Below are positions 11,542-29,668 of a stretch of DNA of 64,000 bases, one piece after another (within the stretch, counting starts at the first letter, position 1; every line of letters starts with the position of its first letter). The notes below the pieces were generated by a model. That model was not told the origin of the DNA, did no database searches, and saw only the letters and a list, made by a program, of their open reading frames with translations. The stretch is from an uncultured Gemmatimonadales bacterium (lineage in GTDB: Bacteria; Gemmatimonadota; Glassbacteria; GWA2-58-10). A program made the position numbers and the translations under genes. Where the stretch lies: the NCBI GenBank assembly GCA_964548275.1, contig CAZJQI010000008.1, forward strand, positions 14,286 through 78,285, read 5' to 3'.

Positions 11542-11566
11542 AAACAGTGAAATTGAGGAGGCGAAG

Positions 11567-12469: not shown

Positions 12470-12527
12470 AGGATTAAGTGAAACCTGCAATTGCCTGATA
12501 TTTAACGAATAAGCCAATCGATAAATC

Positions 12528-13370: not shown

Positions 13371-13388
13371 CCTTTGCGGTGGTTCCAG

Positions 13389-15419
13389 ATGCGCACTAAT
13401 ATCATCCTGCTTCTAGTCTTTATTTCCGTCTCCCTATTCCCGCCAGATCCTGCTTATTCCCAGGCCTCGAGCGGCGTTGATGCCGCCTGGCGCGGGGATA
13501 TGAATGAAAACGGCGAAATCGATATTTTCGACTTGCTGGGCCTTATGCGTCATCTGGTTTCCGGAAACTTTGTATCAGACAAAAAACAGCAAATCGCAAA
13601 CGTTGACAGATCAGCTGACGGCAAGATTACTGTATTCGACCTTATCGCGCTGTTGAAAATCCTCTCCGGCAGGGAGGAACCCCGACCTGTTATATTCTCC
13701 TGCGGCGTTAATCATGTTTGGGCTGTAGGAGACGGGGAAAAGGTATTCCGCGATGATCTCGTACACCCGTGCATGAACTCGAACAGTATCTGGGACGGAG
13801 ACACGATCCGTTTTAAGGGGTTGTATAACGAGGTTCTCGCCTTTCAGGTGATCGTGATTGCAGGTAATTACGGCGCCTTGTCAGTGGAAGTGTCTGCCGA
13901 TTTTCTGGTACACACTGAATCGGGCGAGGTGATTGCCTCTGCGCAAAATCCTCCATACAGCCACGGCGGCTGGTTCGAGATATTCAGCCAGCACTACATT
14001 CATGTCGAGAATCCGACCAATCCCAACTGGTTTTACGGCTCATCTGCCTCGGCCCCTGCGCGCATGACCGGCTGGATACCGGATGCTCTGATCACCCCGG
14101 ATGCCGAACCCGACAAGGGTGGTTTCCCGATTCATATTCCTTCCTCAAAGGTCCAGGGCTTCTGGGTCGACCTCTTCCTTCCCCGCGACACGATAGCTTT
14201 TTCCCCCGGCGTGTACACAGGGAAACTCCGGGTTCTGGAAGAGGGGTGGGAAGTGGCTGCACTGCCGGTCAAGCTCGAGCTTTTGCCCCTTTATCTGCCG
14301 GATGAAAACCACTCCAATGTCTGGCTGTTCAACAGTGGTGTAAAGCTGTATTTCCCTGAATTGGACTCAACCCAGATCGATACGATGCTCAAGCACATGG
14401 CACACCGGCACAGGATCGATCTGGTAGGGGGCTTCCAGCCGCACCGCTCACAGTTCGATCAGGGGATGATGGATGCTTACAAGCCCTACCTTGATGGTAA
14501 CGCGTTTACCTCGCAAGCTGGCTACAAGGGACCCGGCCAGGGAGAGCCGGAGCACCTTTTCCCGATCGGGATGTACGGCAGCGCTGTATTAGGCGATACG
14601 AAAGAACAGGTGCAGGAGCAGTCAGACCTCTGGGTCGACTGGTTCGAGGCGAACGCTCCGCAGGTGCGCTATTTCTGGTACCTGATCGATGAGCCGGGAA
14701 CTGATAAATTCAACTGGGTCGCCGAGCGCGCAGGCTGGATCCACGACAACCCCGGCTCTGGAAAGCGCCTGCCGGTGTTCACCACCAGAGCGTGGACAGC
14801 GGAACTCGACAATGCAATCGACCTCTGGGCCGGCGGCCGCGGCATGGACCTTCAAAAACTGGCCGAACTGAAAGAACAGGGTGAGGATCACTGGTTCTAC
14901 AACGGGTCGCGGCCCCGTTACGGGTCCGTGATCCTGGAAGCAGAGGCGGTGGATTTCCGCATGAACGCCTGGGCCAAGTATATCTACCAGGTCAATACAT
15001 GGTTTCTATGGCACGGGAACCACTGGCGGCACAACAGTCAGGGCCCCAGAGCGCATGAACATCAGAACGTATTCACTGACCCGGTAACCTTTATCAGCGG
15101 GCCGAACACTTTCGGCAACGGGGACGGGATAGTGCTCTATCCGGGCAACGAACCGTTTTATTCTGATGAAAGCCGCGGATTGAACAAGATTTTCGGCTCG
15201 ATCCGGCTGAAAAACATCCGCCGGGGCCAGCAGGATTACGAGATCATGTGGCTGGCAGAGCAGAAAGCAGGCCGCGAGCAGGTGCTGGAGATCGTGAAGA
15301 AAGTGGTGCCCAGGGCGTTCAGCGAGGTGGACATGGATGAGGCCGTTCCCTGGTCCCAGCGAGGAGACGATTACGACGCAGCCAGGCTGGAGCTGCTGGA
15401 GTTGATATCAGAGCAGTAA
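13389..15419 (+). CDS. Secreted protein with N-terminal dockerin-like double EF-hand module; large C-terminal domain of unknown (possibly carbohydrate-active) function
   Basis: Signal peptide MRTNIILLLVFISVSLF. DMNENGEIDIFDLLGLMRHL and ANVDRSADGKITVFDLIALLKIL form a duplicated dockerin-type calcium-binding loop plus helix. The remaining ~580 aa have no motif I can assign. Confidence 0.6.
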   Translation: MRTNIILLLVFISVSLFPPDPAYSQASSGVDAAWRGDMNENGEIDIFDLLGLMRHLVSGNFVSDKKQQIANVDRSADGKITVFDLIALLKILSGREEPRPVIFSCGVNHVWAVGDGEKVFRDDLVHPCMNSNSIWDGDTIRFKGLYNEVLAFQVIVIAGNYGALSVEVSADFLVHTESGEVIASAQNPPYSHGGWFEIFSQHYIHVENPTNPNWFYGSSASAPARMTGWIPDALITPDAEPDKGGFPIHIPSSKVQGFWVDLFLPRDTIAFSPGVYTGKLRVLEEGWEVAALPVKLELLPLYLPDENHSNVWLFNSGVKLYFPELDSTQIDTMLKHMAHRHRIDLVGGFQPHRSQFDQGMMDAYKPYLDGNAFTSQAGYKGPGQGEPEHLFPIGMYGSAVLGDTKEQVQEQSDLWVDWFEANAPQVRYFWYLIDEPGTDKFNWVAERAGWIHDNPGSGKRLPVFTTRAWTAELDNAIDLWAGGRGMDLQKLAELKEQGEDHWFYNGSRPRYGSVILEAEAVDFRMNAWAKYIYQVNTWFLWHGNHWRHNSQGPRAHEHQNVFTDPVTFISGPNTFGNGDGIVLYPGNEPFYSDESRGLNKIFGSIRLKNIRRGQQDYEIMWLAEQKAGREQVLEIVKKVVPRAFSEVDMDEAVPWSQRGDDYDAARLELLELISEQ

Positions 15420-15476
15420 GACTACCAATCATGCAGGTTTATTTAAACAACCTTTTTTCACATATAAGGAGTCGAT

Positions 15477-17543
15477 ATGATTTCATTTAAAAAAACCGGC
15501 ACCATATTTTTTTTAACAGCTTTTTGTCTTTTGAATCTTCTGGCTTGTATCCCCGGCCAGAAAGCCAAACCCGCCACCCTGCTCGAAGACGATTTCTCAG
15601 GCCTCGCACCCGGCATGTTCTCCGCGCCCGTGGGCCCGCACACCGAGTACCACTACCTGCCCGAGGCTGCCCCGAAAGGCAACTGGGCCGTGAGCTGTTT
15701 CACCTGGGAAAGTGGAGCCCAGCGGGCCTGGTGGGTGATCGAGGAGGCCGGCGCACACGTGATGACCCAGACATTCGACAGCAGGCAGATGACCCACACC
15801 CACCCGATGGTGATCACAGGCGATACCCTCTGGACAGACTATACCGCAACTATAACATTCGCTGCTGACTCGCGCCGGGACCAGTGCGGAATCCTCTTCC
15901 GCTACCGAAACGACCGCTGCTACTATTTTTTCGGGCTGGACAGGGACAGAGCTCTGCTCAAGATGGTGCGCCATGCCACTGATTTCCACAAGCCGTACGA
16001 AAAAGTGTTGGCCGAGAAAGATTTTGCCTGGGAGACAGGCCGGTATTACACTGCCGTGGTCGAGCTCGAAGGTGATAAAATCAGGGCCTCGATCGAGGGC
16101 GGGCCTGTGCTGGAAGCAGTCGACACGACTTATCCTCGAGGCAAGCTGGGGCTGAGCTCGGATGTTCCCGCACGCTACAAATATGTTAAAGTGACCGCCA
16201 CTGCGAAGGAGAAAAAACGGATCGAAAAGGAGAAAGCCGCCGGAGAAGCCGAACTTGCCAAATTTCGAGCAGCCAACCCAAAGCCTGTGGTCTGGAAAAA
16301 AATCACGACAAAAAATTTCGGCGTGGGCCGGAACCTTCGTTTCGGCGACCTGAACCGCGACGGCACCTGTGACGTGCTGATCGGCCAGGTGCACCATCAC
16401 GCAGCCCCTCGCGACAGCTACAGCGAGGTCAGCTGCCTGACTGCAATGACATTCGACGGTGAAATCCTCTGGCAGATCGGCACACCGGATCCTGAGAAAA
16501 ACCATCTCACCAACGATGTCGCATTCCAGATCCACGACCTGGACGCTGACGGCAGCAACGAGGTGGTCTATACCATGAATATGGAGCTGATTGTAGCTGA
16601 CGGCGCCACCGGCAGAACCAGGTACAAGGCGCCGACCCCGAAAGCAAAGGCTCCCGCTGACGACTTCCCCCGTATCCTCGGCGACTGCCTCTTTTTCTGC
16701 GACCTCAGGGGCACCGGCCACGACAGGGACATTATTATCAAGGACCGCTACTGGCATCTCTGGGCCCTGGATGATAAGCTGAATATCATGTGGGAGGGGG
16801 CATGCAAAACCGGCCACTACCCGTATGCACACGATACAGACAGCGACGGCCGCGATGAGGTGGCGATCGGCTACACTCTTTTCGACCATGACGGCAGAAA
16901 GCTCTGGAGCCTGGACGAGAAAGTCGAAGATCACGCCGATGGGGTTGCAGTGGTCGATTTCAAGGAGAACGAGGAATCACAGTTGCGAATATTCTATGCG
17001 GCAAGCGATGCGGGAGTCTTCTACACAGACCTGGAAGGCAATATCCTTAAACATTACTGGATCGGCCACGGCCAGAACCCGGCAGTTGCGGATTTCAGGC
17101 CGGATATGCCCGGGTTGGAGGCTGTCTCGATTAATTTCTGGGGCAACCAGGGAATTATCCATTTTTTCGACAGTCAGGGTGAAATCTACCGCGATTTCGA
17201 GCCCAACCAGTACGGCAGCATGTGTCTGCCTGTAAACTGGACCGGTGAGCCGGGAGAATATTTCGTCCATTCGCCCAATGTTATCGAAGGGGGGATGTTC
17301 GACGGCTGGGGCAGGCCGGTGGTGATGTTTCCGGATGACGGCCACCCGGACATGTGCAACGCAGTGCTCGATATCACCGGCGACTGCCGCGATGAAGTTG
17401 TGGTCTGGGACCCGCACGAGATTTGGGTTTACACCCAGGATGACAATCCGAAACCGGGCAGGCTGTACAAGCCGGTGCGCAACCCGCTGTATAACTACTC
17501 GAACTACCAGGCAACGGTTTCCCTGCCTGGCTGGTCGGAATAG
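15477..17543 (+). CDS. Secreted lipoprotein: N-terminal beta-sandwich domain, then FG-GAP/VCBS-like calcium-binding beta-propeller (rhamnogalacturonan-lyase PL11-like repeats)
   Basis: Lipoprotein-type signal (FFLTAFCLLNLLAC). Repeated DxDxDG-type loops (DLNRDGTCDVLIG, DLDADGSNEVVY, DTDSDGRDEVAIG, DITGDCRDEVVVWD). A coiled-coil linker (KEKKRIEKEKAAGEAELAKF) separates the two domains. Family assignment is inferred, not proven. Confidence 0.5.
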   Translation: MISFKKTGTIFFLTAFCLLNLLACIPGQKAKPATLLEDDFSGLAPGMFSAPVGPHTEYHYLPEAAPKGNWAVSCFTWESGAQRAWWVIEEAGAHVMTQTFDSRQMTHTHPMVITGDTLWTDYTATITFAADSRRDQCGILFRYRNDRCYYFFGLDRDRALLKMVRHATDFHKPYEKVLAEKDFAWETGRYYTAVVELEGDKIRASIEGGPVLEAVDTTYPRGKLGLSSDVPARYKYVKVTATAKEKKRIEKEKAAGEAELAKFRAANPKPVVWKKITTKNFGVGRNLRFGDLNRDGTCDVLIGQVHHHAAPRDSYSEVSCLTAMTFDGEILWQIGTPDPEKNHLTNDVAFQIHDLDADGSNEVVYTMNMELIVADGATGRTRYKAPTPKAKAPADDFPRILGDCLFFCDLRGTGHDRDIIIKDRYWHLWALDDKLNIMWEGACKTGHYPYAHDTDSDGRDEVAIGYTLFDHDGRKLWSLDEKVEDHADGVAVVDFKENEESQLRIFYAASDAGVFYTDLEGNILKHYWIGHGQNPAVADFRPDMPGLEAVSINFWGNQGIIHFFDSQGEIYRDFEPNQYGSMCLPVNWTGEPGEYFVHSPNVIEGGMFDGWGRPVVMFPDDGHPDMCNAVLDITGDCRDEVVVWDPHEIWVYTQDDNPKPGRLYKPVRNPLYNYSNYQATVSLPGWSE

Positions 17544-17557
17544 AAGAGAGGAAAACC

Positions 17558-19348
17558 TCAGGTGGTCGCCCTTTTCAGGTCATTCTGCTCGGTCTCGTGG
17601 CGGAACTGCTCCAGCCGGTAGATGATCGAGCCGAGAACGAAAGACAGGGCGATCATCAGAATGCCTTTCAGAGGTGAGCCGAGAAAGATCGAACCCAGGC
17701 CGAAAATAAAGGAGAAAAGGCCCCCCGCACCCAGAGCGAAAGAAATGAGGTTAGACGAGAGAGGAGGACCGGCTGGCAATTTCTCCTGGTCCACCTGTGC
17801 GGTGATCCGCTGCCAGCCCGGGCCGCCCGGATTGGCCCTTCTTACGAAGCTTTTCAACTTCTCTTCAGACACGGGATCGGTCAGGAAAGTAACCGATAGC
17901 CATCCTGCCACGCTGAAAAGGCAGATAAAAACGTAGCGCTGCCACTCCGGAAAAACTATTCCGTACATCTCCAGCACGTTGATTGTGATACAGCCTATTA
18001 CCGAAAGTATGTAGGCCGTGATCTCGGTCCAGGCATTAACACGCCACCAGAACCAGCGCGCCAGCCACACCGCGCCGAGCCCGCTGAACAGTTCGGCCAT
18101 GAACTTCCAGGCATCAGCTATAGATTCAGTTATGCTCCAGACGCCGATTCCGGCAACGAGCACCACCATCATTGCCCCGCGGCCCACCCAGATATAGTGC
18201 CGTTGCGAGGCGTTCTTGCGCACGAAGCGCTTGTAGAAATCGTTTATCATGTAGCTCGAGCCCCAGTTGATCAGGGCGTCCACGCTGGACATGAATGCTG
18301 CCAGGAAAGCAGCGAACATGATCCCCCTCATACCGGCGGGAAGGTATTTCTTGATCATCATCGGATAAGCCAGCTTGTGGTCGGTCAGCTCGGGAAAATC
18401 GGCCATGCTGATAAGCGCCACCAGAATCCAGGGCCACATCAGGAAGGCGTAGTAGACAATGTTGAACCACACGCCGGCGAAAAATGCGTGCTTCTCGTTT
18501 TTGGTGGCCATGATCCTCTGGATAAACATACCGTTGCCGTCAGCCTTTTCGCTCGACCACCAGATCACGAAAATGTAAACGAAAAAGAGGGTCCAGGTGA
18601 ACTCGTTCCCTGTCTTGACAAAAGGCTTGACCACTTCCTCGCCCACCGGGACAAAGCTCAACAGCCCCTGGGCGGTCGAGTTGCCGAAAACCTCGATGAG
18701 CCGGGCTTCGATCCCGGAAAAGCCTCCGACTGCGCCGATAGCCACCACTGCGAGGAAAACCGAACCGAAAAAGGCGATGCAGAACTGGATCACTTCATTG
18801 GCAACAATGCCCCAGAGACCGGCTGCCAGGGCGTAGATCATTGTCACCCCGAGCATGACTGCCAGGGCCAGGTACTCGTTCCAGCCCAGCAGCACGGTGA
18901 TAAAACTCTGCATGGCCAGCATGATAAAACCGATATTGAGCGCGCTGAAAGCGATGCCGTAGAAAATGCTCTGGAAGCCTCGCAGGAAACCTGCCGAGCG
19001 GCCCTCGTAGCGTTCCTCGATTATCTCAAGCTCGGTAAGAATTTTCGCCCTTCGCCAGAAACGGACGAAAAGAAAAGTGGCGCAGAGGTTGCTCAGTGCG
19101 AAACACCAGAGGAACCAGTTTCCGGCAATCCCGTTGCGCCGCACCAGCTCGGTGACCATGAAAGGAGTGTCTGCAGCAAAACCCATTGCCGCGATCGAGG
19201 TGCCGGCAACCCACCAGGGCAGGGCTCTTCCGCTCAGGAAAAAATCCTCCATGCTCTTCCCGGCCCGCTTGGTAAAGTAAATCCCCACACCGATCACGAT
19301 AGCGAAATAAGCCACGATTACTATCAGATCTACAACATTCAATTCCAT
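17558..19348 (-). CDS. Sodium:solute symporter family (SSF) transporter with C-terminal extension
   Basis: From ATG 19348: MELNVVDLIVIVAYFAIVIGVGIYFTKRAGKSMEDFFLSGRALPWWVAGTSIAAMGFAADTPFMV is the typical SSF N-terminus. Multiple TM helices follow, plus ~100 aa of extra C-terminal TM segments. Confidence 0.8.
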   Translation of the reverse strand: MELNVVDLIVIVAYFAIVIGVGIYFTKRAGKSMEDFFLSGRALPWWVAGTSIAAMGFAADTPFMVTELVRRNGIAGNWFLWCFALSNLCATFLFVRFWRRAKILTELEIIEERYEGRSAGFLRGFQSIFYGIAFSALNIGFIMLAMQSFITVLLGWNEYLALAVMLGVTMIYALAAGLWGIVANEVIQFCIAFFGSVFLAVVAIGAVGGFSGIEARLIEVFGNSTAQGLLSFVPVGEEVVKPFVKTGNEFTWTLFFVYIFVIWWSSEKADGNGMFIQRIMATKNEKHAFFAGVWFNIVYYAFLMWPWILVALISMADFPELTDHKLAYPMMIKKYLPAGMRGIMFAAFLAAFMSSVDALINWGSSYMINDFYKRFVRKNASQRHYIWVGRGAMMVVLVAGIGVWSITESIADAWKFMAELFSGLGAVWLARWFWWRVNAWTEITAYILSVIGCITINVLEMYGIVFPEWQRYVFICLFSVAGWLSVTFLTDPVSEEKLKSFVRRANPGGPGWQRITAQVDQEKLPAGPPLSSNLISFALGAGGLFSFIFGLGSIFLGSPLKGILMIALSFVLGSIIYRLEQFRHETEQNDLKRATT

Positions 19349-19562
19349 CGGTCTTGGCTCCCTTGCACCAGGTAAGTATCCGGATGTGTGTTTATAAGTT
19401 GCTAATTGAAAGATCAGGCGATAATTTACATTTATGTAGCTTCCAGAACAAGGACAAAAGCTTTCTGTCCCCTGCAAATTGATTTTTAACGACCTCTGCC
19501 TTTAAGTCCATGAATATAGTCGGATACTGATATCAAAAGCCTGGTTAAAAGGAGCATCGGCA

Positions 19563-21872
19563 ATGACCAAAAGCAGTCTGGCAGTGGCTTTAATGTTGAT
19601 TTTTGCGCACTTGAACGATCTCTGCGGCATTGACCTTCATCTCTATGAGGAAAGTTATCTGGACAGAGTATCGGAGCCGGTTACCTGCGGCGTTCCTTTG
19701 GCCCGGGGATACTGCAATTCGGCGGACGAGCTGGTTTTGAAAATCGGTGGTCAGCCTGTGCCGGTTGAAATCCGCGAGGTCAGCCGCTGGCCGGACGGTT
19801 CTTTGCGATGGGTTCATCTTGATTTCCAGGTAAGTGTGCCCGAAGGACGCCTGATTACTGCCTCGCTGGACAAGGGAAAGAGAGCCCCGGTGGATTCAAA
19901 GCTTAAAGTTGAAAAAACACCGCGTGCGATAACTGTCTCCACCGGCAGGCTCAAAGTCGAGGTCTCCCGGAGAAATTTCAATGTCTTCAATCGCATTCAG
20001 GTTCCCAGCGAGGACGGCCGGTATTTCAGGACACTGGTCAATCCTCACAGGCGCGGACTGGTCGCCTGGGCCGGCAAACAGGAATTCCTTGCTGCTAATG
20101 ACACCCTCTCGGTCGTGGAAATCGAAAGCAGCGGGCCAATACGCCTTGTGCTGCGCGCCGAGGGAAACTTTCAGGACACCAACGGCTTGAAACTGTTCCA
20201 CTATATCTGCCGGCTTTATTTCTACAGCGATTCCCCTGTTGTCCGTCTTGCTTTCACTTTTGAAAACCGTGACCCGGTGATCGAAAACAAGGTAGCTCTT
20301 CAGGGCCTCCACGTGGAAATCCCGACCACGATCAGGGGCGCAGGCGGAGCCTATGATATCGGAAAGCCGGGGGGAGATGTTCAGGGAATTTTCCCAAGCA
20401 GGGTTTCAATGGCCTGGGCCCTTGTCAATTCATCCTCCCTGTCCAGTTTTGGAACGGAATCCTTCTTTGAAATCGCCGGCAGCCCGAAAGAGGAAAAATC
20501 CTCTGAACTGGGCTGGATCAGTCTGGGCTCATCCAAAGGCATGGTGGGGGTGGGACTGCGCTACTTCTGGCAGATGTGGCCCTCGATCCTGGAGGTGAAT
20601 GCCAGCGGCCTGATAAGGGCGGGTCTCTTTCCGCAAAGGTTAAACCGCTCGATCGATATCTATTCTGGGGTGGCCCGCACGCATTACCTGCGCTTTGCTT
20701 TTCTTGGCGTGGGCGATCCGGAACGTATAGGCTCCCTGGTGAACTCCTGCCAGCAGCCTCTTCTTGCACTGGCTTCAACCAGCTACTACTGCCAGGAAAC
20801 ACGTGCCTTCGGAAACATCTTCGACCGCGATCTCAGAAATTACCCGAAAGAAAACAGAAAGATTGTAGAACACGTTGATGGCGAGCTGGATTATGGCTAC
20901 AGTCACATGATGAATATGATTGATGAGCGCACCGTGAACGGGGTTACCCGCGACAGTTACGGGTTCCTGAACTGGGGAGACGGATTGCATTATGCATGGG
21001 TGCCCGGAGAGGATAGTGAGTTGAACCTTTCCTGGAACCACCACTATTACGACCTTCCCCATATGAGCTGTATCGAGTTCGCCAGAACCGGCTGTCTCTG
21101 CTGGCTGGATTGTTTCCTTCCGCAAGCCCATCACCTGATGGACGTGCATATGGTTCATTTCGATCCTGAAAATGAGCTTAACGGCCACAATCGCTACTGC
21201 CCGAGTACCGACCATGTTCGCCTGGACCCCAAGGATGCCTCGGATTACCAGACTGCAAAAGTCTACGTTCACCCAAACCAGAACCATTCGAAAACACAGG
21301 GCATGTTCGACCGGTACCTGCTTACAGGTGATGAAAGAAGCTTTGAGGTTGCTCTTAAGGCGCTCGAATTTGCGGCTTCATTCGGCGCTTACGGTGATTT
21401 CAAACAGCCCAGGGGCGCCGCCCACCAGGTGATGACACTGGTTTATGGCTACCGAATAACCGGAGATAAGCGTTACCTCGATATTGCCCGGAGTTCATTC
21501 GAAAAATGGTGGGAGCACTTTCAAACAACCGAAACGAAATTCACCAGGCGCTTTTTCCAGGTCGGGCTGCTGCTCGAGGCCTTTATTGATTTGTACGAGG
21601 AAACCGGGGACAGGAGAATTATCGAATTTACCAGGCAGGCAGTCGATTGGATGCTGGAGAACAGACCGAATGACAGGTTCCCCAACATGAGCCTGGCTCT
21701 GGGTTTCCTGTCTGCCAGGCCCAAGGAGCCGCGCTACACCGAAATGTTGAAAGAGTATCTTATGCTCTGGAAAGGTGTTCAGGGAAATCCGTTCAAGGAT
21801 TTCGCCATGCACGGCAGGAATGTCGCCAGGGCGCTTTATTATCTGTCAAACGAGGCCAGAGGCTCGAAATGA
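19563..21872 (+). CDS. Secreted protein, unassigned family, paralog 1 of a tandem triplet (N-terminal beta-rich region, C-terminal alpha-helical region)
   Basis: 769 aa with signal peptide. Blocks shared with paralogs 2 and 3: EPVTCGVP, VSRWPDGSLRWVHLDFQ, LFHYICRLYF, ENRDPVIENKVALQGLHVEIPT, WGDG(L/M)HYAW, WNHHYYDLPHM, HHLMDVHMVHF, NRYCP.TDHV, HSKTQG(M/L)FDRY..TGDER, FKQPRGAA.QV. Confidence 0.7.
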   Translation: MTKSSLAVALMLIFAHLNDLCGIDLHLYEESYLDRVSEPVTCGVPLARGYCNSADELVLKIGGQPVPVEIREVSRWPDGSLRWVHLDFQVSVPEGRLITASLDKGKRAPVDSKLKVEKTPRAITVSTGRLKVEVSRRNFNVFNRIQVPSEDGRYFRTLVNPHRRGLVAWAGKQEFLAANDTLSVVEIESSGPIRLVLRAEGNFQDTNGLKLFHYICRLYFYSDSPVVRLAFTFENRDPVIENKVALQGLHVEIPTTIRGAGGAYDIGKPGGDVQGIFPSRVSMAWALVNSSSLSSFGTESFFEIAGSPKEEKSSELGWISLGSSKGMVGVGLRYFWQMWPSILEVNASGLIRAGLFPQRLNRSIDIYSGVARTHYLRFAFLGVGDPERIGSLVNSCQQPLLALASTSYYCQETRAFGNIFDRDLRNYPKENRKIVEHVDGELDYGYSHMMNMIDERTVNGVTRDSYGFLNWGDGLHYAWVPGEDSELNLSWNHHYYDLPHMSCIEFARTGCLCWLDCFLPQAHHLMDVHMVHFDPENELNGHNRYCPSTDHVRLDPKDASDYQTAKVYVHPNQNHSKTQGMFDRYLLTGDERSFEVALKALEFAASFGAYGDFKQPRGAAHQVMTLVYGYRITGDKRYLDIARSSFEKWWEHFQTTETKFTRRFFQVGLLLEAFIDLYEETGDRRIIEFTRQAVDWMLENRPNDRFPNMSLALGFLSARPKEPRYTEMLKEYLMLWKGVQGNPFKDFAMHGRNVARALYYLSNEARGSK

Positions 21873-21899
21873 ATAAGCCTGCAAGGCACGGATCGCTCT

Positions 21900-22070
21900 T
21901 TAACCGAAAAAAATTCCTCGAAGCTCTGCTCCGTGGTAGCCCACTCCTGAGACAAACGTAGGGGCAACCGGCAGGTTGCCCGCGGGGTGGGGATGAAATT
22001 GTGGCATCAAATTTATAAAAAGAATTCCGAACAGATACACCGCGGCTTGCCGCGGGGTAGATCATTTGAT
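21900..22070. repeat. Dispersed intergenic element, copy A (between paralogs 1 and 2)
   Basis: Left motif gaaaaaaattcctcgaagctctgctccgtggta, internal hairpin ggcaacc-ggca-ggttgcc, right motif gatacaccgcggcttgccgcggggtagatcatttgat with embedded tight hairpin ccgcggc-tt-gccgcgg. Confidence 0.6.
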
Positions 22071-22107
22071 TTTGATAATATAACTCAGCCGGTAAGGACA
22101 TACGATC

Positions 22108-24417
22108 ATGTTAAAAAACTTGCTTGCCGTTTTAATAGCCCTGTTCATTACTGTTTCATCCGTTGGAGCGGTAAAACTCTCAGTTGAGGAAAGAAGCGGG
22201 ATTGTGCGGGTAAGCGAGCCTGTCACCTGCGGTGTGCCTTTTGCCGAAAGTGCTGTTTATTCGGAAGACAGCCTCGTTTTGCTGAGAGGCACCTTGCCTG
22301 TGCCGGTTGAAATCCGCCAGGTCAGCCGCTGGCCGGACGGCTCTTTGCGCTGGGTTCACCTGGATTTTCAGGCCAGTGCTGGGCCATGGGAAAACGTCCG
22401 CTTTTCTCTGGAAAAAGGTCCCGCTCAGCCTTTAGCTTCCAGTCTCGAGGTAAAGCGTACTGCCCGAGGCTTCACAGTCGAAACCGGAAAGATAAAGGTC
22501 GAGGTGAAAAGGCGGGGTTTCAATGTATTTAACCGCGTCCTGCTTGCCGGGGAAAACGGAGATTTTGTGAAGGAACTTGTTGCTCCGCACAGTCGCGGAC
22601 TGGCCGCCTGGGCCGGTGGAGAGGAGTATCTTTCCGCCAATGACCAGGCCTCGACACTCCGGGTTGAAAGCTCAGGCCTCATGCGCGTGGTGCTGCGGGC
22701 GCAAGGAGAGTTGAAAAACAGATCGGGGAACAAGCTTTTTCATTATATCTGCCGGTTATATTTCTACAACGGCTCTCCAGTTGTCCGCCTTGTCGTGACT
22801 GTGGAAAACAGGAATCCGGTAATCGAAAACAAGGTCGCTCTTCAGGGACTTCACGTGGAAATTCCCACAACAATGGTTGAAAGCGGCACGGTTTTTCATA
22901 TCGGCGGCCGGGATAGACATCTGGAGGGCCGGTTTGCCGGTTACGGTTCCAATGCTTTTATTCTGGCGCCCTCCTCGGAGCGCTACACTTACGGTGGGGT
23001 GGTGGAAAGTTGGCCCGGCGGCAATGCCAAGACCGAAAGCTCGGACCGGCTGGGCTGGATTGGTATTGCAAGCTCTCGCGGCGCGGTGGCGGTTGGCTTG
23101 CGCGACTTCTGGCAGATGCATCCTTCAAGCCTGGAAGCAGCCTCGGATCAGGGCCTGCTGCTGGTCGGCCTTTTCCCCCTGCGGCTCGGCAGGTCGATTG
23201 ATATCTATTCCGGAGTGTCTCGTACCCACTACCTGCGCTTTGCCTTCACCAGCCAAAACGATCCCGAGTTGCTGTGCTCGCTGACCAGAGCCTGCCAGAA
23301 ACCTCTTACTGCTGTGGCCTCACCGGCCTATTACTGCCGGAAAAGCCGAGCTTTCGGCAAACTGGTAGAGCGAGAATTGTCTCTGTTCCCGGAAGAACAC
23401 CACGCGCTGGTTACCACGGTGCAGAGAGAAACGGACGGGGGTCTGGCCAATCTGCTCTCGCTGGTGGAATCCCGCACTAAAAACGGCGTGACAGTGGAGG
23501 GTTACGGCTATCTGGACTGGGGAGACGGAATGCATCATATCTGGGTGCCTGGAGTGAAAGACCCGCATAACATCTCCTGGAATGGTCATTACTATGATCT
23601 TCCTCATACCTGCTGCCTGGAATACGTGAGCACAGGCAACTGGCGGTACTACGACTTTTTCCTCAGCCGGGCCCAGCATTTGATGGATGTCCATATCGCG
23701 CATTTCGAGCCAGGTAACAAGCTTAACGGTGCCAACCGCTACTGCCCGCCCACCGACCATGTGAGAATCGATCCCAGAAGGCGGGGAGATTTCACCTCCG
23801 CCAGGGTTTACGTATCAAACTCGACCAATCACCACAAGACCCAGGGGCTTTTCGACCGTTTTTATCTTACCGGCGATGAACGGGCGCTCGAGGTGGCCCT
23901 GAAGGCTGTGGAATTCGCCAATTCTTTCGGGGCCTACCGGGATTTCAAACAGCCGCGCGGGGCTGGTTTCCAGGTCCTATCCCTGCTCGAGGCCTACCGT
24001 TACAGCGGCGAAGCCAGATACCTGGAAACCGCGAAAATGACATTCGAGGCCTGGTGGGAGCATTTCAGCACCACGGAGACCAAGTTCACCCGGGGCTATT
24101 TCATGGTCGGGTACCTGCTGGAGGCTTTCGTGGACTACTACGAGATTACCGGGGACAGCCGGGCTGTGGAATTCATCCGCCAGGCCGTGGACTGGATGAG
24201 CGCCAGCCGCCCGAACGACTTATTCTCCAACATGACACTGAGTATCGCCTTTCTGGCGCACCAGACCGGGGAGACCGAATATATCGAACTGGCGAAAAAA
24301 CACCTTTCCCGCTGGCACGGTGTCTGGGAAAACGCTTTCAAGGATTTCGGCCTTCACGGCAGGGGCATTGCCAGGGCGCTCTACTATTTTTCCGATCAAG
24401 CCAGAGGAAGCGATTGA
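22108..24417 (+). CDS. Secreted protein, unassigned family, paralog 2 of tandem triplet
   Basis: 769 aa with signal peptide. Colinear with paralog 1 along its entire length (by eye roughly 55-65% identical) and carries the same conserved blocks. Confidence 0.7.
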   Translation: MLKNLLAVLIALFITVSSVGAVKLSVEERSGIVRVSEPVTCGVPFAESAVYSEDSLVLLRGTLPVPVEIRQVSRWPDGSLRWVHLDFQASAGPWENVRFSLEKGPAQPLASSLEVKRTARGFTVETGKIKVEVKRRGFNVFNRVLLAGENGDFVKELVAPHSRGLAAWAGGEEYLSANDQASTLRVESSGLMRVVLRAQGELKNRSGNKLFHYICRLYFYNGSPVVRLVVTVENRNPVIENKVALQGLHVEIPTTMVESGTVFHIGGRDRHLEGRFAGYGSNAFILAPSSERYTYGGVVESWPGGNAKTESSDRLGWIGIASSRGAVAVGLRDFWQMHPSSLEAASDQGLLLVGLFPLRLGRSIDIYSGVSRTHYLRFAFTSQNDPELLCSLTRACQKPLTAVASPAYYCRKSRAFGKLVERELSLFPEEHHALVTTVQRETDGGLANLLSLVESRTKNGVTVEGYGYLDWGDGMHHIWVPGVKDPHNISWNGHYYDLPHTCCLEYVSTGNWRYYDFFLSRAQHLMDVHIAHFEPGNKLNGANRYCPPTDHVRIDPRRRGDFTSARVYVSNSTNHHKTQGLFDRFYLTGDERALEVALKAVEFANSFGAYRDFKQPRGAGFQVLSLLEAYRYSGEARYLETAKMTFEAWWEHFSTTETKFTRGYFMVGYLLEAFVDYYEITGDSRAVEFIRQAVDWMSASRPNDLFSNMTLSIAFLAHQTGETEYIELAKKHLSRWHGVWENAFKDFGLHGRGIARALYYFSDQARGSD

Positions 24418-24537
24418 ACGGCAATCCCGATATGTTATCCTTTTGCCTGAAGTAAAATTAAGGCTTGATAGAAATTTTGAGAACAACTACAGCAGATCCA
24501 AATTCAGGAAATCTCGCTGAATGAATGGGAGTCGGTT

Positions 24538-27486
24538 ATGAGAAACAGGCTGCTGCAGGCAGGTGTTTTGTTATTTTCACTGGCATCGGTTTTACATGCC
24601 ATAGAACTGACAGTGGCTGAACGCAGCGGAATCGGCCGGATAAACGAGTCGGTCACCTGCGGCGTTCCCCTGCCCGTGAGCTGGGTAAATTCAACTGATG
24701 AACTGGTGCTAAGGGTTTTCGGAGAAATCGTGCCTTGCGAATTCAGGGAAGTCGCTCACTGGCCAGACGGCTCTATTCGTTGGGTGCATCTGGATTTCCA
24801 GGCATCCGTGGAGGCCAATGCAAGGCTCTCCCTCTGGCTGGACAAGGGAACTCCGGCACAGTTTGATTCCAGGCTCGAGGTGGTTGAAGAACAGGGCAAG
24901 GTAACAGTATCTACCGGGAGAATCAGGGCCGAGGTTCTCGCGGCTGGATTTAACGTGTTCAACAGTGTCTGGATCGATACCGGATCGGATGGAGATTACG
25001 ACAAACAGCTGGTAAGCACGCACGACAGGGGTCTGGTCATGTGGGCAGAAGGCCAGGAGTACCTGAGTTCAGCTGACCAGAATACAGAATTAACTGTGGA
25101 AAGCCAGGGAACCATGCGGGTGGTGCTCAAAGCAGAGGGTGATCTCAAGAGCACCACCGGCGCAACCGGATTCCATTTTATCTGCCGCCTGTACTTTTTC
25201 AATAACTCCCCCCTTGTTCGCCTGGCTTACACCTTCGAAAACCGCAGCCCTTATCTGGAGGGCCGTGAGGACATGGTGACTCTGGAAGGCTTGCACGTGG
25301 AGCTGCCCACAGCAGATTCGCATTCCGAGTTCTTCCTCGGACTGCCTGATCAGGATCTGAAAGCGACATCTTCTGAGGCAGGAGGCAATCAAATCTATCT
25401 CGGCACCAGCGCTACGAACCAGTTGATCTACTACCATGGAGAAAGCCAGGACAACGTTGGTAATCCCAAGGCGCTGAAAACAGACCGCATCGGCTGGATC
25501 GGGATGGATGTTGTTGAAAGCGGGCAAGTAAAATCACTGGTTGGCATGGGCCTGCAGGATTTCTGGCAGATGCATCCAAGCACGCTGGAGGTGGATGCCG
25601 AAACCGGATTGATTACCGCCGGGCTTATCCCGTATAGACTTGACACTCCCATCGATATTTACTCCGGGGTGGCCCGCACCCATTATCTGCGTTTCGTCTT
25701 TTTGCACGAGGAGGAAGCCTCCAACCTGGGAAAGATGCTCGCCGCCTGCCAGAAACCCTTGCTTGCAATAGCCGAGCCTGAATATTACTGCAGGGACAGC
25801 AATACGTTCGGTAAGATAATGGAACGAAATCCCGCACTCTATCCGCCCGAGCACCTGGAGGAGGTTCAGCGCGTTGAGAGAGAGCTCGATCTGGGCCTGG
25901 AGGACCAGCTGCGCAAGCTCGACAACCGCACGAAAAACGATGTAACCTGGGAGAGTTACGGCTTTCTCAACTGGGGTGACGGCATGCACTACGCCTGGGA
26001 ACCCGGGGTTCACGTTGCGCGAAATATCGCCTGGAACCACCACTATTATGACCTTCCGCACATGAGCAGTGTCGAGTTCGTGCGCACAGGGGATTACCGC
26101 TGGCTGGATTATTTTCTCTCCCGTGCCCACCACCTGATGGATGTGCACATGGTTCATTTCGGTCCAGGCAAATACCTGAACGGCGCCAACCGCTACTGCC
26201 CTCCAACCGACCACGTGCGCAGAGATCCCACAGATGATAGCGATTACACTACTGCTCCGGTTTACGTATCACCTTACACCAATCACCACAAGACTCAAGG
26301 GTTGTTCGAGCGCTGGTATTTCACCGGGGATGAACGCAGCCTGGACTGCGCTCTCCGGGGAGCTGAATTCGCCAGATCGTTCGGCGGGTATCCTGATTAC
26401 AAGCAGCCGCGCGGCGCGGCTTTCCAGGTCCTGACCCTGCTTGCCGCCTACCAGTGCACCGGCGACGATAAATACCTCCTGACTGCAAAAACCACTTTCG
26501 ACACCTGGTACAGCTATTTCCGCAGCACGAGCATCAAGTTCACCCAGGGATATTTCATGGTGGGATTTCTGCTCGAGGCTTTTATCGACTACTATGAAAT
26601 CAGCGGCGACAGCAATGTCGTAGATTTTGTCAAGCAAGCAGTGGACTGGATGCGCGCCAACAGGCCAGAAGAAAAATATTCGAACATGGCGCACGGTATC
26701 GGTTTCCTGGCCGCACAACTCGAAGACCCTTCCTATACGACATTACAAAAAGAATACCTCACAAGCTGGTACGGCACCTGGTCAAACGCCTACAAGGATT
26801 TCGGCCTGAACGGCAGGAGTCTCGCCCGCGCACTGTATTACCTTTCTTATGAAGGACAGGGTTACGAACTGCGGATGACCGGAGACTACGATGATGACGA
26901 AGCCCTGACAATCAGCGACCTGGTCGCACTGCTGGTCAAAGGGATGCAGGATGAGTCAAACCCGGAGATAGATTTCAACCGGGACGGCAAGTACTCTATC
27001 ATGGATGCACTCGCCCTGCTGATATATATCCGCGGGCACAGCGCAGGTGTTTCACTGGCCGCAGCAGGCAGGGATCTGAACTCGAAATTCCGGCTCACCC
27101 CGGTAGAGCTGGCTGAGCTGTTGGAACAACTGGTCAAGCTGGATCTTACTGAAAGTGAATGGGAAGCGTTAAATTCGCTACTAGACCGTGAGCAACTGCC
27201 CAGGGCGTTCACCCTGTCGCAGAACCGGCCGAACCCGTTCAACCCCACCACGACTATCAGTTTCGGCATCCCCCAGGGGCGTGCTCTGGAAGTGAAGCTG
27301 GTTGTGTATAACCTTAGAGCGATGCTGGTAAAGGTGCTTGTGGAAGAGGTAAAAGAGCCGGGATATTACAGTGTGCTCTGGGACGGCACTGATAACCAGG
27401 GAAAAGCGATTGGGTCCGGGGTGTATTTTTACCGCCTCAGTGCAGGCGACTTTTCTGCTGTGCGCAAAATGGTTCTGATGAAATAA
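24538..27486 (+). CDS. Secreted protein, paralog 3 of tandem triplet, with added C-terminal dockerin-like module and T9SS C-terminal sorting domain
   Basis: First ~780 aa are colinear with paralogs 1 and 2. A dockerin-like stretch follows (DYDDDEALTISDLVALLVKGM...DFNRDGKYSIMDALALLIYIRG). The last ~85 aa (PNPFNPTTTISFGIPQGRALEVKLVVYNLRAMLVKVL...GVYFYRLSAGDFSAVRKMVLMK) match the T9SS / Por secretion tail pattern. Confidence 0.75.
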   Translation: MRNRLLQAGVLLFSLASVLHAIELTVAERSGIGRINESVTCGVPLPVSWVNSTDELVLRVFGEIVPCEFREVAHWPDGSIRWVHLDFQASVEANARLSLWLDKGTPAQFDSRLEVVEEQGKVTVSTGRIRAEVLAAGFNVFNSVWIDTGSDGDYDKQLVSTHDRGLVMWAEGQEYLSSADQNTELTVESQGTMRVVLKAEGDLKSTTGATGFHFICRLYFFNNSPLVRLAYTFENRSPYLEGREDMVTLEGLHVELPTADSHSEFFLGLPDQDLKATSSEAGGNQIYLGTSATNQLIYYHGESQDNVGNPKALKTDRIGWIGMDVVESGQVKSLVGMGLQDFWQMHPSTLEVDAETGLITAGLIPYRLDTPIDIYSGVARTHYLRFVFLHEEEASNLGKMLAACQKPLLAIAEPEYYCRDSNTFGKIMERNPALYPPEHLEEVQRVERELDLGLEDQLRKLDNRTKNDVTWESYGFLNWGDGMHYAWEPGVHVARNIAWNHHYYDLPHMSSVEFVRTGDYRWLDYFLSRAHHLMDVHMVHFGPGKYLNGANRYCPPTDHVRRDPTDDSDYTTAPVYVSPYTNHHKTQGLFERWYFTGDERSLDCALRGAEFARSFGGYPDYKQPRGAAFQVLTLLAAYQCTGDDKYLLTAKTTFDTWYSYFRSTSIKFTQGYFMVGFLLEAFIDYYEISGDSNVVDFVKQAVDWMRANRPEEKYSNMAHGIGFLAAQLEDPSYTTLQKEYLTSWYGTWSNAYKDFGLNGRSLARALYYLSYEGQGYELRMTGDYDDDEALTISDLVALLVKGMQDESNPEIDFNRDGKYSIMDALALLIYIRGHSAGVSLAAAGRDLNSKFRLTPVELAELLEQLVKLDLTESEWEALNSLLDREQLPRAFTLSQNRPNPFNPTTTISFGIPQGRALEVKLVVYNLRAMLVKVLVEEVKEPGYYSVLWDGTDNQGKAIGSGVYFYRLSAGDFSAVRKMVLMK

Positions 27487-27523
27487 ATCGGCTTAATCCT
27501 TTGCATCCGGAGGCAAGTGCCAA

Positions 27524-29668
27524 ATGAAAAAGTTTCCGGGTTTTCAAAAATTACTTTTTCTCCTCGCTTTCTTTTCCATTTTCTACGTCAGATTCTCCTT
27601 CGCCGTAGAGGTATCCGAAGGACACCCACGCCTGTTTTTCCGGGACAGCGCCTGGGGAGAACGCTCGATCACCACGGAACAACTCAGGCAGCGGGCCAAT
27701 GACCCGCGCTACGCGGCCTATGTGAACAGGCTCACTTACAGCTCCTGCAACGTGGCTCTTAAAGCGATTCTGTTTGACGATACTCAGGCTGCCCGGGAAT
27801 GCATCTCCATGATGGAAAGCAACTTCGATTTCGACGGCACTACAACCGACGGCGAGCTGTTGATGTGGCGGGCCATGGCTTTCGACTGGCTTTACAACCA
27901 TCCGGATTTCACCGAGACTCACAAACAGAATGTGATCCGGAAACTCGCTCAGGGGGCGAGCTGGTGCAGGAGTGAGTATATCGGACAGGGTCCGCACGTT
28001 TTTCATACACGTATGTATGCGTTCGCTCTCGGTACAGCAATAGCGGGCCTTGCGCTCAAGGGCCACCACCAGGATGCGGATTTTTACATCGACTGGGCTG
28101 ACTCGATATTCACTCACCACCTTTTCCCTGCCCGCCACCTCCAGGGCGGCTCTGTGCACAACAGCCTGGCCTACGGCCGCAGGTACGTCATGTGGCATTG
28201 CGGCCATTTCATGAGTGCCTGGTATTCAGCCACCGGTCAGGACAAATGGAAAACGGTCCGCGAGCAGCAGGATGACTGGGCCTGGCGCGAGGCGGAATTT
28301 ATCATGTATGGGAGGCAGCCGGACGGGCTGCTGGTGCGTTACGGCGACTGTTTCAGACGCACCTCCGAGCGGTTCTCTTTCCGGGTGATCGGCGAGCGGG
28401 CCTTTGCCTGCAGCAAGCCGATAGGGATGAATTACCTCCACTACCTGTTCCAGACCCAGGCGAATATGACGGACAACCGCGTGGTGGAGGAAGGCAACGC
28501 CTATCATGTTCTTCTCTATTGGGACGCAGACGATCCAGGCCGCTCGTTTAAAACTCTGCCCACCAGAACCCTGTTCAGTCCCCAGGGCACCGGCATGGTT
28601 TTCTGGCGCAGCGGCTGGGGCGAGGACGATACGTTTATCTTTTTCAAGTGCGGCAACTATTTCGGCAACCACGGCCATTTTGACCAGGGCCACCTCGAGG
28701 TTTTCCATCGCGCACCGCTGTTGATCGAGGGCGGAGCCTACGAGGGCGATTTCGACAGCAATTACAGGCTTAACTATTACCGCAAAACGGTCGCCCATAA
28801 CTTGATCCTGGCGGTAAACCCCGCCCTGGCTCAGGATGAGGGAGGACAAAGGATTTTCAGCAACCAGGGCGAACCATCAGTGGAAAGCTACCTGGGTAAC
28901 CCGATTAACGAAACCGGAGATATTATTGATTACCGGGACCAGGGGAACTGGTGTTACGTTTCAGGGAGTTTCGGCAGCGCTTACGATAACAGTAGGATAA
29001 TTAGGGCCGTGCGCGAGGTGGCCTGGATCGGCGAGCGCTACCTGGTGGTTGTGGACAATATCAAACTGGGCAGCAGTTCTTTTCTGCCAAAGGTGATCTG
29101 GCATTATACGGTCACCCCCGTAATCGAGGGAAACCGATTTACAGTCACCGACCGCGGCGGCAGGGCGGTAGTCACCGTGCTGGCGCCCCCGGAGGCGACA
29201 ATCGACACAATTCAGGCTTACCGGATCGGCACCGCATATTACCCTCCGCCTGATCCGCGTCCCTCGATAGGGGTGGGGCGAACCGAAATCAGCGTGCCCC
29301 AGCCGGGAGTGGCCGATTACACCTTTGTCCAGGTAATCGACGTGGCCGATGAAGGGATCGCCCCCGGTAGCCTGGCTTTCGAATCAGATGAAACCGAGGG
29401 AACTCTGATTGTGACTTTGCCGGTAGGCACTTTCCGCCTGAGCGGCAGCCCGCTCGAACGCACGGCAGTCGCGTTCGAGGCTGCCGCGCTGGAACCGAGA
29501 GGCGATTTCAGCGGCAATGGCACCGTGGGTATCGAAGATCTGGTGAGCCTGCTTCTGCGCGCCCTTGAAAACACCAACGATCCTATGCTGGATTTCAACC
29601 AGGACGGACACTATTCGATCCTGGACGCCATTGCGCTGCTGCTATATATCCACTCGCAGGGGAGCTAG
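27524..29668 (+). CDS. Heparinase II/III-like polysaccharide lyase with C-terminal dockerin-like module
   Basis: Signal peptide. N-terminal alpha-helical (alpha/alpha toroid-like) region. GNYFGNHGHFDQGHLEVFHRAPLLIEGG matches the heparinase II/III C-terminal GH.H.D signature. C-terminus RGDFSGNGTVGIEDLVSLLLRAL...DFNQDGHYSILDAIALLLYI is a dockerin-type duplicated loop-helix. Confidence 0.75.
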   Translation: MKKFPGFQKLLFLLAFFSIFYVRFSFAVEVSEGHPRLFFRDSAWGERSITTEQLRQRANDPRYAAYVNRLTYSSCNVALKAILFDDTQAARECISMMESNFDFDGTTTDGELLMWRAMAFDWLYNHPDFTETHKQNVIRKLAQGASWCRSEYIGQGPHVFHTRMYAFALGTAIAGLALKGHHQDADFYIDWADSIFTHHLFPARHLQGGSVHNSLAYGRRYVMWHCGHFMSAWYSATGQDKWKTVREQQDDWAWREAEFIMYGRQPDGLLVRYGDCFRRTSERFSFRVIGERAFACSKPIGMNYLHYLFQTQANMTDNRVVEEGNAYHVLLYWDADDPGRSFKTLPTRTLFSPQGTGMVFWRSGWGEDDTFIFFKCGNYFGNHGHFDQGHLEVFHRAPLLIEGGAYEGDFDSNYRLNYYRKTVAHNLILAVNPALAQDEGGQRIFSNQGEPSVESYLGNPINETGDIIDYRDQGNWCYVSGSFGSAYDNSRIIRAVREVAWIGERYLVVVDNIKLGSSSFLPKVIWHYTVTPVIEGNRFTVTDRGGRAVVTVLAPPEATIDTIQAYRIGTAYYPPPDPRPSIGVGRTEISVPQPGVADYTFVQVIDVADEGIAPGSLAFESDETEGTLIVTLPVGTFRLSGSPLERTAVAFEAAALEPRGDFSGNGTVGIEDLVSLLLRALENTNDPMLDFNQDGHYSILDAIALLLYIHSQGS

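Follow-up and report, generated by a model that had tools for sequence, protein, structure and literature searches.

Why should a large secreted protein carry a dockerin-type module directly behind its signal peptide, in a region where no partner for such a module is recognised? The question is raised by a 64,000-nucleotide stretch of DNA (the window, to which all positions refer) from an uncultured Gemmatimonadales bacterium of the Glassbacteria lineage (GenBank assembly GCA_964548275.1, contig CAZJQI010000008.1), and within it by two neighbouring genes, here called gene A, which encodes the protein with the module, and gene B, which encodes a lipoprotein with a beta-propeller. We consider it probable, while allowing for considerable doubt, that gene A encodes a surface-tethered retaining beta-N-acetylhexosaminidase which uses residues D434 and E435 and whose tag binds a partner encoded elsewhere, and that gene B encodes a lipid-anchored glycan binder, possibly a lyase. 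What is new is an uncharacterised branch of glycoside hydrolase family 123 (GH123), its dockerin fusion in Glassbacteria, and the conserved gene cluster to which both genes belong. Gene A and the parts of its product are as follows.

13389..15419, plus strand: gene A (open reading frame, ORF), 676 residues from the ATG; signal peptide, N-terminal dockerin-type module and GH123/DUF4091-like glycoside hydrolase
13389..13460, plus strand: predicted Sec signal peptide, residues 1–24, MRTNIILLLVFISVSLFPPDPAYS (read by eye from the sequence)
13485..13682, plus strand: dockerin-type module, residues 33–98, two calcium loop-helix segments with a short helix between them (Pfam, PDB profile search, model)
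13497..13532, plus strand: calcium loop 1, DMNENGEIDIFD, residues 37–48, with Asp (D48) at loop position 12 (sequence)
13605..13640, plus strand: calcium loop 2, DRSADGKITVFD, residues 73–84, with Asp (D84) at loop position 12 (sequence)
13686..14294, plus strand: N-terminal beta-sandwich, residues ~100–302, with invariant D232 and W259 (model, alignment to NgaCa 8k2f, conservation)
14295..15416, plus strand: (beta/alpha)8 barrel, DUF4091 region and C-terminal helices, residues ~303–676 (Pfam, Foldseek; invariant Y504, W541, Y584 and R611)
14688..14693, plus strand: putative catalytic Asp434-Glu435, the DE motif in YLIDEPG (conservation, alignment to 8k2j)

Gene A begins 18 nucleotides after the stop codon of a purine nucleoside phosphorylase (PNP) gene, and an in-frame TTG at 13374 precedes its ATG. 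The signal peptide is a plausible one for Sec, with a putative cleavage between MRTNIILLLVFISVSLFPPDPAYS and the QA that follows, and its residues 2–15 form a helix in the AlphaFold model (predicted local distance difference test, pLDDT, 88.7; predicted TM-score, pTM, 0.84). A protein identical to the gene A product is found on metagenome contigs of the Joint Genome Institute (JGI). Two Pfam families, Dockerin_1 and GH123_cat, match it above threshold, while an NCBIfam scan of gene A, gene B and the first PcRGLX-like protein of the cluster gave nothing useful.

The original prediction had placed a duplicated dockerin segment right after the signal peptide, and in this it was correct. The two segments that it quoted are residues 37–56 and 71–92 of gene A, immediately downstream of the signal peptide, and each unit of about 22 residues consists of a 12-residue calcium loop, ending with Asp at position 12, followed by a helix. 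At this loop position dockerins have Asp whereas canonical EF-hands have Glu. Dockerin_1 (PF00404), with a threshold of 22.9 bits, gives 25.1 bits for the full-length protein and 31.1 bits for the module taken alone. It is matched by 16 of 16 modules tested and is also the only family above threshold on the isolated module, as each of the EF-hand families stays below its own. In the model, helices occupy residues 46–58, 64–70 and 82–92, with coil ahead of residue 37, so that loop 1 lacks an entering helix, and this predicted arrangement is the three-helix layout of dockerins.

When the window is translated in all six frames, a regular expression for the calcium loop finds three sites, compared to 0.04 per residue shuffle, and two sites 25–45 residues apart, the spacing seen in dockerins, occurred in none of 300 shuffles. 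A chance EF-hand-like match is ruled out by this test together with the Dockerin_1-only Pfam score. On the concern that the segments might be generic EF-hand pairs, Pfam favours dockerins, though centrin and calmodulin come near when a profile of the 16 modules is searched against the PDB, where the dockerins 2mte, 6kg9 and 1daq rank first (about 3e-5). As judged from these scores, the separation of the module from EF-hands appears real but narrow.

About 15 orthologues, 57–79% identical to gene A and each 670–680 residues long, keep the module. The named carriers are metagenome-assembled genomes (MAGs) of Candidatus Glassbacteria and of Gemmatimonadota, plus one MAG labelled ‘archaeon’. In other homologues (more than 100 among the matches listed, about 600 residues in length) the signal peptide leads straight into the catalytic domain, and the same MAGs hold paralogues both with and without the module. 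The dockerin would seem to be a lineage-specific addition in one Glassbacteria-like clade. Four orthologues show a degenerate loop 2 (HQPGSG) and one has lost half of the module (P0011, P0013, P0015, P0016, P0014; loci L003 and L008), and the degenerate loops hint that calcium binding at site 2 may be dispensable. The hydrophobic helix faces (IFDLL...LLK.L), on the other hand, are strongly conserved among the orthologues and in unrelated carrier proteins, suggesting that a surface for binding has been kept. Unrelated protein fragments carry this ‘NIFDLL’ dockerin subtype at their C-termini (30–40 bits), and in one Glassbacteria locus and one Gemmatimonadales locus gene A paralogues have beta-helix enzymes nearby that end in dockerin-like modules.

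A homologue search with the dockerin profile returned short fragments only (50–116 residues), some being truncated gene A-like N-termini and others C-terminal dockerins, and among these it revealed no cohesin. One fragment, P0402, has a cohesin-like look upstream of its dockerin, for which Pfam gave no confirmation. The metagenome fragments P0391–P0394 and P0404 (100–116 residues) have a signal peptide and the same N-terminal dockerin followed by unrelated sequence; they probably derive from gene A-like genes through frameshift or truncation.

Compared with the type I cellulosomal dockerins (Clostridium thermocellum CelS, 2mte, and Xyn10B, 1ohz; C. cellulolyticum Cel5A, 2vn6), the module of gene A likewise has two calcium loop-helix repeats of about 22 residues, some 36 residues apart, with a GD-x-N-x-(D/N)-G start, Asp at position 12 and a short middle helix, and it too belongs to a secreted carbohydrate-active enzyme. 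It differs in being N-terminal and not C-terminal, in its Glassbacteria-like (Gemmatimonadota) host, and in the lack of a cohesin in the window. In C. thermocellum, cohesins recognise dockerins via loop positions 10–11, normally Ser-Thr; in the gene A module these are Ile/Val-Phe. Dockerins on C. perfringens glycosidases (NagH, 2ozn) and on Ruminococcus flavefaciens GH16_21 resemble that of gene A in being borne by a non-cellulolytic glycosidase and provide an N-terminal precedent. Cohesin partners of these dockerins have been identified. The N-terminal placement, which had been presented as unusual, is in fact uncommon, but natural N-terminal and internal dockerins are documented, including that of R. 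flavefaciens GH16_21 (PMC12484212), and the implied surprise shrinks correspondingly. A passage in PMC6487960, citing Peer et al. 2009, also describes dockerins in organisms without a cellulosome.

The remaining ~580 residues of gene A, previously left unassigned, are, on the evidence of structure prediction and Foldseek, a glycoside hydrolase of the GH123/DUF4091 superfamily with a DE motif. With the gene A model as query, every one of the top 22 Foldseek matches is a beta-N-acetylgalactosaminidase or hexosaminidase of GH123 type (E from 6e-34 to 3e-22; the next match is at 1e-6), the best being NgaCa (8k2g, E 6e-34, target-normalised TM-score 0.79), followed by NgaDssm, NgaP2, NgaAt, BvGH123 and CpNga123. 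Beta-N-acetylgalactosaminidases (8k2f, 8k2j, 8k2h) are also the nearest PDB entries by sequence, and GH123_cat (DUF4091, PF13320) matches residues 489–620 with 24.7 bits (threshold 23.1). D434-E435-P436 is invariant in 59 of 59 homologues, and in the profile alignment the DE motif falls opposite HLADEPV, the ADEP motif of NgaDssm (8k2j). Sumida et al. (PMC11087588) showed that an enlarged GH123 family is delimited by DUF4091 together with the DE motif; nine residues are strictly conserved in it, in NgaLy numbering D95, W115, D327, E328, Y392, G427, W431, Y466 and R478. From hidden Markov model (HMM) alignments and the order of motifs, eight of the nine have recognisable candidates in gene A, namely D232, W259, D434, E435, Y504, W541, Y584 and R606/R611, and these are invariant or nearly so.

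Gene A shares with the structurally known members of the enlarged family (NgaCa 8k2g, NgaDssm 8k2j, NgaP2, NgaAt, BvGH123 5l7v and CpNga123 5fqe) the same beta-sandwich and (beta/alpha)8 barrel, the DE motif, a DUF4091 region with Tyr and Arg, and homologues in loci for N-acetylgalactosamine (GalNAc) or other N-acetylhexosamine (HexNAc) sugars. It is set apart from them by its low sequence identity, by a conserved Gly that is not evident, and by the N-terminal dockerin-type module, which our own dockerin HMM did not find in eleven GH123-type chains. We infer that gene A is most likely a retaining beta-N-acetylhexosaminidase, and that it probably acts on beta-GalNAc. In number of representative clusters the family reaches 2066 when the cut-off is E<=1e-3, and still 288 when it is E<=1e-30, its members being 53–60% identical across Glassbacteria, Gemmatimonadota, Bacteroidota and Acidobacteriota, and these homologues in several phyla rule out a restriction of gene A to one lineage. 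The branch of GH123 to which it belongs is large, separate and without a characterised member.

Gene B follows on the same strand:

15477..17543, plus strand: gene B, lipoprotein of 688 residues (ORF, Pfam, model, Foldseek)
15537..15548, plus strand: lipobox LLAC, Cys24 (read from the sequence)
15573..16199, plus strand: concanavalin-like jelly-roll, residues ~33–241, a relative of DUF1080/3-keto-disaccharide hydrolase and CBM66 (Pfam, profile, Foldseek)
16203..16274, plus strand: linker formed by a single long charged helix, residues 243–266 (secondary structure of the model)
16284..17480, plus strand: FG-GAP beta-propeller, residues ~270–668 (model, Foldseek, Pfam RGL11_C)
16815..16940, plus strand: His447 ... 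His486-x-Asp488, opposite the calcium-binding His, His and Asp of YesW (HMM alignments to 2z8r)

The original prediction saw in this neighbour a lipoprotein with a calcium-loop propeller resembling polysaccharide lyase family 11 (PL11), and the lipobox, the Pfam RGL11_C match (39.8 bits against a threshold of 27, profile positions 216–459 of 490) and Foldseek all agree with it. The best matches to the AlphaFold model (pLDDT 85.9) are the PL11 lyases YesW, YesX and 4cag (E 2.5e-15 to 4e-14), followed by Bap1 and generic propellers. The protein carries FG-GAP calcium loops, and 32 strands are predicted within residues 270–654, consistent with eight blades. The supposed coiled-coil linker turned out to be one predicted helix of 24 residues, and an N-terminal CBM66/DUF1080-like domain had been overlooked. 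On this jelly-roll the Pfam family 3keto-disac_hyd stays below threshold (20.8 bits), the levanase CBM66 structures 4azz/4b1m match by profile (E 2e-5), and Foldseek gives 4b1m a target-normalised TM-score of 0.76–0.79. Gene B itself has no dockerin.

With the PL11 lyases (YesW 2z8r, YesX 2zuy and the Bacillus licheniformis enzyme 4cag) gene B shares the eight-bladed FG-GAP-type propeller, RGL11_C and the His-His-Asp calcium site, and H447, H486 and D488 are invariant in 59 gene B homologues; in PL11 the His pairs coordinate calcium, and Arg and Lys are found at the uronate carboxylate (PMC8787155), besides a stacking Tyr. It differs from the lyases in sequence (about 14–16% identity), in being a lipoprotein, in the N-terminal domain attached via the long helix, and in having no basic residues aligned with the Arg and Lys. 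Homologues that are 62–96% identical occur in Glassbacteria, Acidobacteriota, Planctomycetota and KSB1, with 62–70% identity between phyla, and make up an uncharacterised family.

Genes A and B open a conserved cluster (13389–29668). Behind them lie the genes for a symporter, for three PcRGLX-like proteins and for a protein like heparinase II, and dockerin-like modules are present on two of these enzymes as well:

17558..19477, minus strand: sodium:solute symporter, convergent with gene B (Pfam SSF, E 1.8e-37; synteny in L003 and L009)
19563..27486, plus strand: three tandem PcRGLX-like/GH127-like paralogues of 769, 769 and 982 residues (Pfam; 46–56% mutual identity; syntenic in Glassbacteria loci)
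26872..27048, plus strand: dockerin-like module inside the 982-residue PcRGLX-like protein, ahead of a C-terminal domain like that of the type IX secretion system (T9SS) or FlgD_ig (own HMM; Dockerin_1 18.2 bits, below the threshold of 22.9)
27524..29668, plus strand: heparinase II-like protein of 714 residues (heparinase II, PDB 2fuq/3e80, E 8e-14)
29492..29665, plus strand: C-terminal dockerin-like module, ~58 residues, of the 714-residue protein (own HMM; Dockerin_1 18.1 bits, below threshold)

The claim of at least three dockerin-bearing proteins holds insofar as neighbouring enzymes do bear further dockerin-like modules, yet of the three only gene A's exceeds the Pfam threshold. The C-terminal module of the 714-residue protein weakly matches (E 0.007) the chain 2jnk/2ozn, deposited as hyalurononglucosaminidase, in a stretch which we take to be the C. 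perfringens NagH dockerin. In the 982-residue protein the dockerin-like module is directly followed, at 27223–27483, by a T9SS-type or FlgD_ig-like sorting domain (NRPNPFNPTTTISF...) with matches to FlgD_ig, CHU_C and Por_Secre_tail, and this organism may combine type IX-like secretion with dockerin-like tags. The PcRGLX-like paralogues form an uncharacterised lyase- or hydrolase-like family that is expanded in the cluster; no PDB sequence relatives were found for the first of them. A Pfam scan of the 714-residue protein matched zero families. Two heparinase II/III-like lyases had been announced for the window, one of which is recognisable only through its similarity to the heparinase II structure, and a GH2 enzyme, also announced, was not found there.

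Three other Glassbacteria loci keep all or part of the gene arrangement, which runs from PNP through genes A and B and the symporter (on the opposite strand) to the PcRGLX-like genes, and they differ by one insert of about 1.7 kb separating genes A and B; in L003 this insert is a gene for an outer-membrane efflux protein. A promoter and terminator scan of 12400–19700 gave counts at chance level, so the case for an operon is one of spacing and synteny only. The closest named relatives are Candidatus Glassbacteria MAGs, Glassbacteria being a class of Gemmatimonadota (PMC11596202). DATKXY01 (‘archaeon isolate SMAG_U14205’, loci L007 and L010) provides the closest named homologues, with 65% identity for gene A and 80% for gene B; its ‘archaeon’ label looks wrong, since the cluster is of the bacterial Glassbacteria type.

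Outside Glassbacteria, homologues of gene A sit within SusC/SusD loci. In Aquipluma nitroreducens (AP018694.1, 4897622–4919418, L005) the homologue lies directly after a true GH123 gene in such a locus, which also encodes SIS, GatZ/KbaZ and PfkB proteins (GalNAc/tagatose pathway), BNR/Sortilin proteins, DUF4832 and DUF5107, and in Aestuariibaculum it adjoins a heparinase II/III-like protein. Over 17 loci of gene A homologues the commonest neighbours are FG-GAP/ASPIC lipoproteins, Sortilin/BNR proteins, GH20, GH123 and amidohydrolases. The HexNAc-related neighbours support a HexNAc-directed role in breaking down a glycan that is complex and probably acidic, and the presence of PL11-like, PcRGLX-like and heparinase II-like proteins as partners speaks for uronic-acid linkages. 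Large FG-GAP/ASPIC lipoproteins are encoded within 6 kb of dockerin-less gene A homologues in Bacteroidota and Acidobacteriota (L014, L017, L021, L029, L035, L024), being about 1100–1200 residues long in L014, L021 and L029, with shorter FG-GAP ORFs in L017, L035 and L024, so that the pairing of a GH123-like with an FG-GAP protein extends more widely than Glassbacteria.

Three further ORFs of the window lie outside the cluster. At 11468–12469 a DivIVA-like protein is encoded, the C-terminal half of which is very acidic and Glu-rich; with its mechanical start it runs into the upstream gene, and JGI calls a shorter gene (300 residues). Large ORFs without a significant Pfam family occur at 1246–2991 (581 residues, with faint hints of CBM_4_9 and transglutaminase only) and at 62346–63827 (493 residues), neither being GH2.

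According to the reading that we favour, gene A would be exported via Sec as a member of a widespread, biochemically uncharacterised GH123/DUF4091 branch, and catalysis would be substrate-assisted, by Asp434/Glu435 at the (beta/alpha)8 barrel's mouth, with the N-terminal beta-sandwich as buttress. In one Glassbacteria-like clade a dockerin-type module would have been inserted between signal peptide and beta-sandwich. We infer that this module, folded by calcium, tethers the enzyme to a protein partner, cohesin-like or other, encoded outside the window, which would keep it at the cell surface beside the cluster's other tagged enzymes. The product of gene B would be a surface protein with a lipid anchor, the lectin-like CBM66/DUF1080 domain and calcium-containing PL11-like propeller of which bind a uronic-acid-containing glycan and possibly cleave it by beta-elimination. 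The cluster as a whole would jointly depolymerise and import a complex acidic polysaccharide containing HexNAc. Of all this, the analysis itself shows the domain identities, the folds, the conservation of motifs and the synteny, whereas activities, substrate, tethering and partner belong to the interpretation.

Several observations weigh against this interpretation. On the side of the enzyme, the GH123_cat match covers only the last third of the profile (positions 214–321 of 324) and exceeds its threshold by 1.6 bits, identity to the matched GH123-type structures is only 11–19%, and the conserved Gly aligns with T537. The specificity of gene A is left open by NgaMg, a characterised Group 1 member that was inactive on all substrates tested (PMC11087588). 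With regard to gene B, the Arg and Lys positions of YesW fall opposite Pro or Asn in both HMM alignments, in a region aligned at low confidence, and in the planctomycete Symmachiella its orthologues are solitary, away from glycan clusters. As to the tag, centrin (8e-5) and calmodulin (about 4e-4) are nearly level with the dockerins in the PDB profile search, the degenerate second loops and the half-module loss mean that calcium or partner binding is perhaps not essential, and Pfam matched no cohesin or scaffoldin in any scanned ORF of the window, as had been stated before.

The observations on the tag would also be expected if the module were an orphan calcium-binding loop-helix pair without a cohesin partner, which stabilises or solubilises the enzyme or directly binds calcium-bridged anionic polymers or the cell envelope. 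This is a possibility to be taken seriously, although we hold it to be rather unlikely. The missing cohesin, the eroded modules and the closeness of EF-hand proteins all fit it, as do the prevalence of family members that lack the module and the dockerin-like modules of non-cellulosomal organisms mentioned in PMC6487960. Less easily explained by it are Dockerin_1 as the sole family over threshold, matched by every module tested, the dockerin-type loop-helix architecture with Asp at position 12, the helix faces that are conserved even in unrelated carriers, and the presence of such modules on several different enzymes of the same cluster and of related loci. The original prediction leads in another direction, to a cellulosome-like system for pectin or rhamnogalacturonan, with the enzyme and a PL11 lyase docked on a scaffoldin encoded elsewhere, and this we regard as improbable. 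The PL11-like propeller is indeed the best structural match of gene B, the three downstream PcRGLX-like proteins belong to a family named after an exo-rhamnogalacturonan lyase, and three dockerin-like modules lie within 16 kb. Against this, gene A is GH123-like and no pectinase, and its relatives elsewhere have HexNAc-related and not pectin-related neighbours; gene B, which would have to dock, has no dockerin and no evident PL11 Arg/Lys; the fourth lyase-like protein resembles heparinase II; and the scanned ORFs hold no scaffoldin. The nearest named relatives, moreover, are Candidatus Glassbacteria, and a literature search found no paper on dockerins in that group.

A cohesin would not be needed at all if gene B itself were the surface receptor of the dockerin-like modules, giving a multi-enzyme complex tethered to the outer membrane. 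Gene B is lipid-anchored, has a fold suited to protein interaction and adjoins gene A in four Glassbacteria-like loci, and FG-GAP/ASPIC lipoproteins recur near gene A homologues of Bacteroidota; these homologues, however, have no dockerin to be received, gene B orthologues remain 62–70% identical across phyla and stand alone in Symmachiella, and the enzyme-like His-His-Asp calcium site is better explained by a conserved catalytic or glycan-binding role, so that we consider such a receptor function extremely unlikely. Hardly better are the prospects of the more general idea that, in a diderm, dockerin-like modules build a cohesin-free surface multi-enzyme complex for an acidic HexNAc-containing polysaccharide, whether via gene B or another non-cohesin receptor. 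If true, it would imply a new type of dockerin receptor.

Much of what this locus displays is already known: N-terminal or internal dockerins, non-cellulosomal dockerins, GH123-type enzymes and PL11-type folds. Gene A with its dockerin tag is a variant of known enzyme designs, uncharacterised but not out of the ordinary. A seemingly unknown protein has nevertheless been assigned a fold and a probable catalytic mechanism, and it serves as a pointer to a large uncharacterised GH123 branch in Bacteroidota, Gemmatimonadota/Glassbacteria and Acidobacteriota, the genomic company of which (GH20, GH123, heparinase II/III-like proteins and FG-GAP lipoproteins) suggests the degradation of HexNAc-containing acidic glycans. 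As it stands, the finding is of use for annotation, offers enzyme discovery a reasonable target and will not surprise a specialist. If the dockerin-type tags of Glassbacteria do have a partner, the tethering of enzymes would be extended to a poorly known diderm lineage.

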